A stretch of DNA of 43,585 nucleotides. Origin: a virus. Lineage: Duplodnaviria; Heunggongvirae; Uroviricota; Caudoviricetes. Below are positions 39,001-42,000 of the stretch, piece after piece (the first letter of the stretch is position 1; every line of letters starts with the position of its first letter). A program made the position numbers. Location of the stretch: positions 1 through 43,585 of the IMG/VR virus record IMGVR_UViG_2529292909_000016. One strand, written 5' to 3'.

Positions 39001-42000
39001 AATGCTGTTACTGCCCTTAAATTTAAATGCAAGCGTATGCCAGTCATGGTCGAATGCGCCAAACGTGCCAAGTTCTTTTTGTTGATTAACTGTATGATGG
39101 TATGCAACATTAATACTGGCTTTATCTGTCTGGACAAAGAAAGAACTCAGATGGCCTTCACCACCCTCACCCGGCCATTCCGCTATTCGCCAGTACAAAC
39201 CAAAGGCATACTTGTTTCTGGTTGTCTCAAGATTGACGTTTTCGGGGATTTTAAACCGGACAGCAATTTCCCCGCCTTTTTCCAGTAAAAGTTTTGCCTT
39301 GTCTGCAGCAATATCACAGTACATTGACCAGGATTTCGCGCTGTTATTTTTCTCAATTCGCAGAGCTTTATTGCCGCTGTCATCAACCAGTGTGCGCCTG
39401 CCATACACACCGTCCCAGCCATAGGGTTTCAGCTGATTGTCTGTAGCTTTTTTGGCATCGTAAAAAATTACAGACTCTGAGGTGGTAACCGGTCTGTCTG
39501 GAACAACCACCCCGGCAGTACCATTAACAAACGCAGAAGACTTACCCGCGCAGCTCAGAATCGCAGTTGCCAGACGGTCGGAAATAATCCCACGGCGAGC
39601 CCATGAACTGAAATGGCTCGCCCTGTCCTGTGACGTCCAGGTGGCTGAGCTGTCACGCCATTTCGAACCGTAATAACCGATACCCGGAATGTCCGGGTCT
39701 TCTTCCGGTTTGTTCGTCGGCACATTCACCCCGTTCTCATCGGTCATGAACGGTACGAAATGGATATTCTTTTCCGTTTTATTTTTATAGCTGCCGTACA
39801 CCGTCTGGTACGTGGATTCGTTCTTCTGCTTCCAGAAATACGTCGTGTCCCCGCATATCCAGGGAACACCGCCAGCAGAGCCACCGACGCACTGGCCTGC
39901 CATATCCGCCAGGTCTGCACGGAATTTATCAACCAGCGCACCAAACTGTGCGGCATGATTTGCCGGCGTACCGCCAAAATCAAATTCCCCCTGCATCCAC
40001 ACCACGGCAAACAGCACATTTTTCGGGTTCTTCTCCAGTGCCGCTTTTGTTCGACCGATAAGGTCCTTATACAGCGGCTTGTCCACACCCCAGCGGGTTG
40101 AATTCTCCGAGGCGCCACTCGCGTCACTGTATGTGCCATCAGCTCCGGTGGTGAACGCTGAACCACCACGACAGCACGGAACCAGCAGAATGCCCGCATT
40201 CGCCGGTATAAACGGCAGCAGTTTTTTGGCGATATGCAGCCCCTGCCCCACGGTTCCGTACTGCCCCTTTGACAGGTCCGCTTTCGGATGGTTAAGACGG
40301 CTCATGTCCTGCACATCATGCAGACAATGGTCCGCCGGAATGATGTCGTTATATTTGCATGCTGCACCGCCCGGTGTCACCGTACTGCGACGCGCTAACT
40401 GTTTAATACGTGGATCAGGGCTGTCGAATGTATCCGGTAATGGCAGTCCCTCACCGTATGACATACCATTGGACTGACCAGCAAGCGCGATCACATAGTA
40501 ATATTCTGGCGCAACAGAAGGCGCTGAGGTCGTCGGACGGTTGCCTGGCTCCTCTGGTGATGAGATGCTCCCCTCACTCACAACTGGCTGGATGAACTCC
40601 GCACCATAACCAGCTGTCGAAATCAGCGCACTACCATAAGGCTGCCACCCTTCCTTCAGTTTTTGAGTTATTCGTTTCGCAAGGTCTGACGGCGACGCCG
40701 CCCTGACAACATCATAGTGTTTAAATGCCATGAATCCTCCCGGCCGGGATAATATTGTGAGTAAAATAAGGAGCGGGCTGAAGTCCGGAAGTTACAGGAC
40801 AATGGCAGAAGGGAGACTACAGCCCGCAATTCGAAAAAGGTCGCGCAGTTGCGCAGAGTGATTACTATGGGGTATTATTCGCCAGCTGAAATATTACTTC
40901 ACGTTTCATTGTTCATTCCTTGCCGCCCGCGTCTCCCAGCGCGGGCTTTTTTGTCCATAAGAAAGCCCCTCCGGAGAGGGGCTGGAGAGTGGCGCTATGT
41001 GCCACTAAACCCGCGTCATTCTCGTTTTGATAATCAGAGATTATACCGTCACCAGTCGCCCCTCCGCTCAGGGGGATTCACCATGCAGTTTTTTCTAACA
41101 AATTCTCATCCGGGCAGACAACATTCAACTGACTTAATTGTGAGGTATGTAACATTCCCGTTGAACGGATACAAAAAAAGCCAGCCACCAGGGGAGGCTG
41201 GCAAACTCGTAGAGCAAAATGCTGTTACGCAAACTTCGTTACAGGGTTATCCTGCAATACTTAAAATATACAATATTTAGAAAACTAATAGTGCTATATG
41301 AGATTTTTAAGATTTTGTTATTAATTGCGGTCGTACCTTCCTTTCTGTGTACTTTCCGTATAGCTCACAGGATTCTGGGTACAAAAAAACCCGCGCATCG
41401 GCGGGTTCGGCTGCGTGGCAATGTAACCACTCTTATCATGATATGCAGATTTTTACGATCGTAAACTATTTTTTCGCTGATAAAATACAGAGCTTCTCCC
41501 TCCCGGCAATTCACGCTCAACATACCGATCCATCTCAAGCCTCACTCCCAGCATCATCAGCATGCCTTCAACAATCCCCTCCGCTTTGTGAAGGCGTTTA
41601 CCTATACAGGTGTCAGAGCACCCATGTTTCCGTGCCAGCGCCATGAACGTCTCCCCCAACACGTAGTAATCAACCAGCAAGTCATGCAGATCGCGATTGT
41701 TCCGGTACCCGAGCATTTGATGACGATGTCGATTTTCAGGAACGCATGGCAGAACACATCCGCTACATGGCTGAAACCATCGCCCGTCACCAAATTAATA
41801 TTGATTCAGAGGTATAAAACGGATGAGTACAGCACTCGCAACGCTGGCAGGGAAGCTGGCTGAACGTGTCGGCATGGATTCTGTCGACCCACAGGAACTA
41901 ATCACCACTCTTCGCCAGACGGCATTTAAAGGTGATGCCAGCGATGCGCAATTTATCGCATTGTTGATCGTCGCCAACCAGTACGGCCTTAATCCCTGGA

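Follow-up and report, generated by a model that had tools for sequence, protein, structure and literature searches.

Integrated, non-inducible prophage remnants that have been shaped by deletion and that keep scattered functional genes are familiar from Escherichia coli K-12, where DLP12, Rac and Qin are examples and such remnants are also called "grounded" prophages; DLP12 keeps a Q-type antiterminator together with a lysis cassette, and Rac keeps recombination genes. Chromosomal remnants of lambda with exo and bet also exist as laboratory tools, in the recombineering prophages (cI857 delta(cro-bioA)), where pL, cI857, N and gam are kept and Red can be induced. Here we analyse a stretch of 43,585 nucleotides (nt) of viral DNA (IMG/VR record IMGVR_UViG_2529292909_000016; hereafter the window, meaning that whole stretch), in which the 3' remnant of a Q antiterminator gene abuts, in divergent orientation, the 3' remnant of gam. 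We take this site to mark a single illegitimate deletion, about 18 kb long, in an already defective, 933W-like (short-tailed, lambdoid) prophage at ynfG of an E. coli DECA strain, and put the probability of this reading at about 0.88. The prophage is a cryptic lambdoid prophage of the DLP12, Rac and Qin kind, seen at an early and well-documented stage of decay; those remnants, however, are old and widely shared, whereas the scar in the window is private, an undeleted parent is available, and Q itself is truncated. In comparison to the recombineering prophages, the window is also a chromosomal remnant with exo and bet, but promoter, repressor, N region and gam are gone.

The closest relatives of the element are the prophage of E. 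coli O104:H4 2009EL-2071 (NC_018661.1, 2523020-2582900) and that of a sister strain, which resemble the window in integration site, gene order and Bet, and whose Q-to-lysis arm shares 99.9-100% nucleotide identity with it, the exo allele being the same as the sister's. Both differ from the window in keeping 17.4-18.1 kb between gam and Q. A third copy integrated at ynfG is found in strain AST198. The late control module of phage 933W (AF125520.1) is 98.3% identical over the 3' part of Q, pR', qut and tR'; the window, in contrast, is without Q residues 1-60. The elements of the junction are these (lengths of products in amino acids, aa; ORF, open reading frame):

41453..41707, minus strand: 3' remnant of the Q antiterminator gene, codons 61-144 and stop of a 144-aa Q
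41453..41716, minus strand: chimeric 87-aa ORF, MLG followed by Q residues 61-144
41706..41707, no strand: deletion junction, TA common to both parental breakpoints
41708..41817, plus strand: 3' remnant of gam, 2 nt of codon 63, codons 64-98 and stop of a 98-aa Gam

The stop codon of Q occupies 41453-41455 on the minus strand, and the translated remnant, which ends KNSLRS, corresponds to residues 61-144 in a protein of 144 aa that many E. coli prophages encode and that is annotated as "antiterminator Q family protein" (WP_001204886.1; Q933/Q21 family), the match to full-length Q beginning at Y61. The N-terminal 60 codons are thus deleted and 84 are left, where the first-pass annotation had counted roughly 55; its QuuD comparison had ended early. 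When compared to Pfam PF06530 (Phage_antitermQ), the 87-aa ORF covers profile positions 64-118 of 118 (E=8e-15), whereas full-length Q covers positions 1-118 (E=2e-50), and the remnant does not hold the complete domain of 118 positions. Its location is that of a Q gene, directly upstream of pR', qut, tR' and the late/lysis operon. At the DNA level the remnant is 99.86% identical to the O104:H4 Q and 98.3% identical to that of 933W, and all alignments of the Q arm to these two end at 41707. Full-length Q showed a weak match to the Q21 structures PDB 6P18 and 6JNX (E=1.3e-7, residues 8-86), and because the missing residues 1-60 make up the larger part of the stretch that aligns with Q21, no antiterminator activity would be expected of what remains. 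The ATG of the 87-aa ORF (41716-41714) is antisense gam DNA, so that this ORF is a chimera made by the junction; no Shine-Dalgarno motif and no promoter are evident in the sequence read upstream of it (41717-41740). An exact-sequence look-up of its product found one contig only in the public collection (1,141 bp, Logan, SRR094136).

On the other side, the stop codon of gam ends at 41817, and the 35-aa remnant matches positions 64-98 of the 98 in Pfam PF06064 (Gam; E=2.6e-19). Alignments of intact gam genes begin at 41708. Here too the first-pass annotation had misjudged the length, giving roughly 44 codons instead of 35 plus 2 nt of codon 63, although it had placed the two outer coordinates of the paired remnants (41453 and 41817) exactly at the stop codons, and the Pfam matches to both are far above chance. 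No full-length ORF for the PF06064 protein (about 98 aa, with a start codon) is found at the site. Because the gam frame meets a stop 21 codons upstream and has no start codon before an internal Met at 41747, gam is dead.

Q-derived DNA stops at 41707 and gam-derived DNA begins at 41708, with 41707/41708 as the single meeting point, and only the dinucleotide TA (41706-41707) could be assigned to either parent. With the breakpoint shown as a slash, the parental sequences are ...TTCCGGTA/AAGGCGG on the Q side and ...GGCCATTA/CCCGAGC on the gam side; in the sister strain, the Q-side breakpoint reads ...TTGTTCCGGTA/AAGGCGGG and the gam-side breakpoint ...CAGGCCATTA/CCCGAGCATTTG. The window reads ...TTGTTCCGGTACCCGAGCATTTG, that is, Q-side sequence up to and including GGTA and gam-side sequence starting at (TA)CCCGAGC. 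Base-by-base comparison showed the 40-nt flanks of the two parental breakpoints to be otherwise unrelated, and the lack of identity beyond TA does not agree with homologous or site-specific recombination. Nor does the junction look like an insertion sequence (IS)-mediated deletion, as it contains no inserted or filler DNA and no IS element or IS end, Q DNA being joined straight to gam DNA. What is seen (colinear parental flanks, a 2-nt identity, and no filler or mobile DNA) is the sequence pattern of a microhomology-mediated illegitimate deletion. The first-pass annotation had suggested recombination at a homology overlap of 15-30 bp (41683-41716); a short microhomology is in fact present, but it consists of the 2-nt TA.

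Several other accounts of the junction were considered and rejected. A blunt joint (0 nt overlap) with a private T-to-A change at 41712 is what one reads against O104:H4 and AST198, but that base is parental in the sister; a signature of error-prone repair at 41712 is likewise ruled out, given that the sister gam allele already reads ...ATTA/CCCGAGC. No complete genome carried the 41712 base. The junction creates a KpnI site (GGTACC), as an engineered deletion might, but GGTA and CC are native to the two parents and there are no extra bases. Chi sites were rejected as determinants of the endpoints, as the prophage portion of the window contains not one. A CCGG or "TCCGG" motif noticed by eye at several scars turned out to be partly imperfect microhomology, and has no bearing on the Q/gam junction.

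In the intact copies integrated at ynfG (O104:H4 2009EL-2071, AST198 and the sister) the flanks of the junction are colinear and in the same relative orientation, and the distance between the two breakpoints is 17,361 bp in O104:H4 (record positions 2543683 and 2526321), 16,705 bp in AST198 and 18,134 bp in the sister assembly GCA_000249675.2 (AIFZ01000022.1 positions 46580-64713). In these alignments, neither full-length Q nor full-length Gam matches the window beyond the junction, which maps the deletion endpoints. Between them O104:H4 has, starting from the Q end, the first 180 nt of Q, ninH, rusA, a DUF1364 gene, ninE, ninB and an ORF6N gene; toxin-antitoxin genes of the RelE/ParE and Doc types and hokD; DUF551, DUF977 and DUF1627 genes, a DnaC-like ATPase and a replication initiator-like gene; cII, cro and a LexA-family repressor; and, at the gam end, a DUF1828 gene, kil, a gene of the RecE family (690 aa) and the initial 187 nt of gam. 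The sister has a full Q (144 aa), ninH, rusA, ybcO, ninE, ninB, and ORF6N, RelE, HTH and Fic genes at the Q end, and cII, cro, an S24-peptidase cI, DUF3024, a protein kinase, KilR, a RecE-family gene and a full Gam (98 aa) at the gam end, followed by bet and exo. By analogy, hokD and the replication genes were probably lost by the strain of the window as well. The single deletion from inside gam to inside Q that had been proposed at first reading, and the content predicted for it (5' Q, nin genes, replication genes, cII, cro, cI, kil and 5' gam), are thus supported by colinear copies with breakpoints 16,705-18,134 bp apart.

The source of the window could be traced. Its positions 32605-43585 are 100.000% identical to AIFY01000034.1 (GCA_000249655.2), a 501-kb contig of which the window is the start, and to the right of the window this contig continues with an xis remnant, a 387-aa integrase, ynfG', ynfH, dmsD, clcB and onward. 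Repressor, N, O or P genes are therefore not to be found immediately outside the window, where int, ynfG', ynfH and dmsD lie instead, which removes one of the two objections to a deletion foreseen at first reading, the other, that homology to Q or Gam might run on past the junction, being removed by the alignments described above. Host genes border the element on both sides (ynfE and ynfF on the left, in the window; ynfG', ynfH and dmsD after int on the right, in the source contig), and a bacterial attachment site, an integrase at one end, and the loss of essential lytic modules (immunity, replication and Q; major capsid, large terminase and most of portal) mark it as a defective lambdoid prophage. 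Exact-protein look-ups with window-specific ORFs and with exo led to two assemblies of adjacent accession, GCA_000249655.2 (AIFY01) and GCA_000249675.2 (AIFZ01), the latter being the sister; the accession range AIFA-AIFZ is that of the E. coli DECA collection (PMC3558956). Over window positions 28920-41340 (12.4 kb), which include two late-region scars, the sister contig AIFZ01000022.1 shows 0 mismatches and 4 single-base gaps. At least three of the five late-region scars described below (J3, J4 and J5) are common to both strains, whereas the Q-gam deletion is not in the sister, which keeps the whole interval; because of this distribution, the Q-gam deletion is the youngest of the six scars and private to one strain.

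The junction was absent from the large genome collections searched. A 1-kb query spanning it was covered by 0 of 5,426 complete E. coli genomes, alignments either stopping at 41707 or starting at 41708, and scans for the exact junction gave 0 hits each in GTDB representative genomes, JGI metagenome contigs and IMG/VR, from which we take it to be private and recent. It does occur, at 100% identity across the 1,141-bp contig, in the read-based Logan assembly of SRR094136.

The deletion runs from Q codon 60/61 to gam codon 63, and took with it the start of Q, the nin genes including rusA, toxin-antitoxin genes (Fic/Doc-family, RelE-family), cII and cro, as well as the LexA-like cI repressor, kil, the RecE-family gene and the 5' part of gam. 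Its ends were joined at the 2-nt TA, probably by RecA-independent end joining or template switching; replication slippage or gyrase-mediated exchange would give the same scar. The native end joining of E. coli is reported to need RecBCD and to produce deletions that can reach 83 kb, with microhomology of 1-3 nt at the joint (bioRxiv 10.1101/605246). This alternative end joining (Chayot et al. model, in the same report) resembles the window in its kilobase-scale deletions, 1-3 nt of microhomology and lack of inserted DNA, and differs from it in that an experimental double-strand break was used and RecBCD dependence shown, whereas the event in the window is known from its junction signature.

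Other histories must be weighed against a single deletion. We consider it unlikely, though deserving of attention, that two or more nested deletions produced the junction, or that an IS first inserted there and then disappeared in a deletion that it mediated itself. The same prophage bears five other independent scars, and one relative lost the region through an IS3-family-associated deletion, so that repeated deletion is the norm at this locus; however, the near-clonal sister has the full interval, no intermediate form was found, and the junction, with both ends within ORFs and a clean 2-nt overlap, holds no IS remnant or foreign base. Much less credit can be given to the idea that the retained genes are a domesticated module, in which the host would use bet-exo, the lysis cassette and the esterase, and the chimeric 87-aa Q fragment would be expressed and would interfere with the Q-dependent antitermination of related phages. 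It is true that bet, exo, holin, endolysin, Rz and esterase are intact ORFs amid deleted neighbours, and that the junction yields an ATG-initiated ORF which keeps PF06530 positions 64-118. The kept genes, however, are identical or nearly so to those of intact relatives, and the deletion, being private to one strain, is too recent for purifying selection to show; integrity of the retained ORFs is expected for a very recent event. The chimeric ORF, moreover, is without promoter or ribosome-binding site (promoter-like matches, 3 against 1.7 expected), and bet and exo are without pL.

An assembly artefact, with the contig falsely joining two prophage fragments, is hardly conceivable. The assembly is a draft from 2012 and shows single-base homopolymer differences from that of the sister, but an independent k-mer assembly of SRR094136 gives the same junction with 100% identity over 1,141 bp, a 2-nt overlap cannot mislead an assembler, and the flanks run on correctly for tens of kb on both sides. 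We see just as little chance that the Q and gam remnants come from two different prophages brought together when the chromosome between them was deleted or inverted. E. coli genomes often contain more than one lambdoid prophage, with Q and Red genes that resemble one another (up to 9 matching places per genome), and the arm with gam, bet and exo is a mosaic when compared with O104:H4 (96.8%). Against this, both the sister and AST198 have the two arms within a single prophage, ordered and oriented as in the window and located at the same site (ynfF ... ynfG'); the sister shows 0 mismatches along 12.4 kb of its late arm and encodes an identical exo protein, AST198 is 99.6-99.9% identical to the window on both arms, and the chromosomal flanks are as expected on both sides.

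Our preference for a single deletion has its own weak points. The repair pathway is deduced from the 2-nt overlap. One event and a series of nested deletions leave the same trace, since the last deletion erases the earlier junctions, and a single event is the simplest reading. Our reading of the sister interval covers its two ends, the content of the middle 5.4 kb (record 50213-55610) being assumed from O104:H4. SRR094136 probably contains the very reads behind the GenBank assembly, so that agreement with it guards against assembler error and not against a change in culture. Finally, that loss of the interval disarms the prophage, and was plausibly favoured for that reason, is something we infer.

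This last argument starts from the state of the prophage before the deletion, which already had no capsid or large terminase genes but still had the switch, Q and the lysis genes, so that SOS induction would kill the cell without producing phage. Induction being then purely suicidal, loss of the interval would plausibly be advantageous. Prophages that are "grounded" are reported to be prone to deletion of harmful genes (PMC6379469), and the independent losses of the early region in other strains are consistent with such disarming. In GCA_901482365.1 (locus L016, 4900-6850) the early region is lost and an IS3-family element lies between the 3' remnant of the esterase gene and the RecE-family gene, and in GCA_025372735.1 (L019, 7700-9450) a DUF1627 fragment is fused to a bet that is without its first 40 or so codons; both carry the same exo allele and lost the early region independently, at other endpoints. 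In AST198 (L010, 20470-21840), the early region is kept and nearly all late genes are lost.

After the deletion, and by the established rules of lambdoid regulation, the prophage would have no repressor, no early transcription from pL and pR, and no replication. Without a functional Q, transcripts from pR' should stop at tR', and the lysis cassette should be silent unless a compatible Q acted in trans; bet and exo, although intact, have lost pL, their own promoter, and bet has lost N-dependent transcription with it. Promoter-like matches upstream of bet and exo are at chance level (3 found, 1.7 expected). The retained parts of the prophage on either side of the junction are:

36605..38152, minus strand: lysis cassette, downstream of pR'/tR', all genes full length
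36605-37063, minus strand: Rz-like gene, protein identical to that of O104:H4
37399-37932, minus strand: endolysin gene, full-length 177-aa ORF, protein different from that of O104:H4, one single-nucleotide polymorphism in the gene (37477)
37937-38152, minus strand: holin gene, protein identical to that of O104:H4
38821..40731, minus strand: SASA-family carbohydrate esterase gene, 636 aa, intact, first late gene after Q/pR'
40964-40983 and 41185-41204, minus strand: terminator-like hairpins from a terminator scan
41383..41408, minus strand: tR' intrinsic terminator, downstream of pR', from the terminator scan and the 933W annotation
41417..41424, minus strand: putative qut (Q-utilisation) element, position mapped from the 933W annotation (AF125520.1)
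41438..41465, minus strand: late promoter pR', TTTACG-16-TATCAT, overlapping the 3' end of Q and lying at the pR' annotated in 933W (98.3% alignment)
41823..42608, plus strand: bet (RecT-family single-strand annealing protein), intact, 261 aa, protein identical to the O104:H4 Bet
42605..43285, plus strand: exo (lambda exonuclease family), intact, 226 aa
43334..43585, plus strand: DUF4222 gene, the last gene of the window, followed in the source contig by the xis remnant, integrase and ynfG'

The integrity of bet and exo after the gam remnant (full length, 261 and 226 aa) and of holin, endolysin and Rz agrees with what had been noticed at first reading. The exact exo protein was found in 10 contigs, those of the source and sister assemblies among them, and the DUF1378 and DUF826 genes are kept intact as well. 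The first-pass annotation had pictured a prophage that lost repressor and replication genes while keeping its lysis genes; that picture holds, but the prophage is not otherwise intact, as it has undergone five further deletions.

These older scars, which were found by blastn comparison with the prophage of O104:H4 2009EL-2071 and from print-outs of the junctions, span 19068..34972 in the late region and have overlaps of 1-4 nt each:

about 19068: scar J1, 1.1 kb removed
24113-24115: scar J2, 2.3 kb removed
25917/25918: scar J3, 2.0 kb removed
34599-34604: scar J4, 4.4 kb removed
34971/34972: scar J5, 3.8 kb removed; 5' part of the small terminase gene

Together they account for the loss of the major capsid gene, most of portal, the large terminase gene, the 3' part of the small terminase gene and parts of the LPD38 gene; the O104:H4 copy has 13.7 kb of late genes that are gone from the window. 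Two ORFs, of 279 and 1706 aa, are what is left of the LPD38 gene, and no record matched the truncated 1706-aa product in an exact look-up. A 374-bp island of portal is left between two scars. The right breakpoint of J5 (...TA/TCCACGGTGTCTGACGG) recurs, identical to the nucleotide, in a different deletion in AST198 (L010 21464-21465). Its left partner in the window is the 374-bp portal fragment (...CCCCTGAATA/), and in AST198, where the break is shared at the small terminase gene terS, the left partner is the LPD38 gene (...CTGCGGTTA/). AST198 is 0.8% different in its chromosomal flank and does not share scar J1, and in a spread of 60 of the 428 matching records it was the only one to start at the terS breakpoint. 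The shared breakpoint could be a hotspot (a pac-like terminase cut, or the small CCACG/CGTGG hairpin beginning at the break) or a nested deletion. It is tempting to speculate that all six scars, with overlaps of 1-4 nt and all confined to the prophage, record double-strand breaks at preferred sites that were repaired by end joining, in survivors selected for having lost lethal functions, with Q-gam as the last "disarming" step of a decay that looks programmed and not as a random loss; an example would be a terminase cutting a pac-like site in terS of a trapped, induced prophage. We regard this as very doubtful.

Deletional decay of lambdoid prophages, including loss of immunity and replication, is already known to the point of being textbook matter, with three independent cases in this one prophage lineage, and nothing in our findings will surprise a specialist. 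What the locus adds is a clean, base-resolved case of a deletion with a 2-nt microhomology in a natural isolate, and a parental allele that survives in a near-clonal sister, which makes the two DECA strains a natural isogenic pair. Such a pair could be used to study how loss of the switch, the replication genes, Q and the toxin genes affects SOS-induced killing, read-through from pR' into the lysis cassette, and cross-activation by the Q of a co-resident Stx-type phage.

A few minor observations on the surroundings of these elements may be recorded. Between tR' and the esterase gene, a match to the small RNA STnc100 (Rfam, 76.8 bits, gathering score 47) lies at 40953-41114 on the minus strand, and both the window and the sister are without 44 bp of it that are present in O104:H4 (indel at 40998/40999). 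No tRNA genes are present between Q and esterase, where 933W has them. A run of T residues ending at 36266 (36259-36266) is one base shorter and shifts the frame of an Ais-like gene within 35944-36525 (plus strand), for a lipopolysaccharide core heptose(II)-phosphate phosphatase of 193 aa that is intact in O104:H4, AST198 and the sister. The esterase gene of the sister, in turn, is broken into three ORFs, and both this and the Ais-like frameshift may reflect misread homopolymers in the draft assemblies of 2012 and not true mutations.

Next to rspB, positions 1-5689 hold a second prophage remnant, with a truncated 3'-5' exonuclease gene (2419-4050), an excisionase gene and a gene for a 431-aa integrase (4394-5689). 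Abutting this remnant is a copy of IS600 (1-897 and 2118 to about 2380), which is split by a 1,220-bp insertion (898-2117) encoding a transposase with HTH_38 and rve domains (IS30-like); the insertion is missing from AST198. Between the 5' stub of ynfG and the late genes, positions 16500-19068 carry genes of the early-left type in the opposite orientation, namely those for an AntA/AntB antirepressor, TraR/DksA, DUF4752, Ea22-like fragments and DUF551, all of which are also in O104:H4 and AST198. This block resembles what would be left of another prophage in tandem, or of an exchange of modules at the element's far end. In the late region, the 1.5 kb at 31100-32594 gave no megablast match to the O104:H4 copy, which has cor and a neighbouring gene there, indicating that this module was replaced; and the tail-fibre gene contains, at 32775-32983, an imperfect tandem repeat with a 63-bp offset and about 92% identity.

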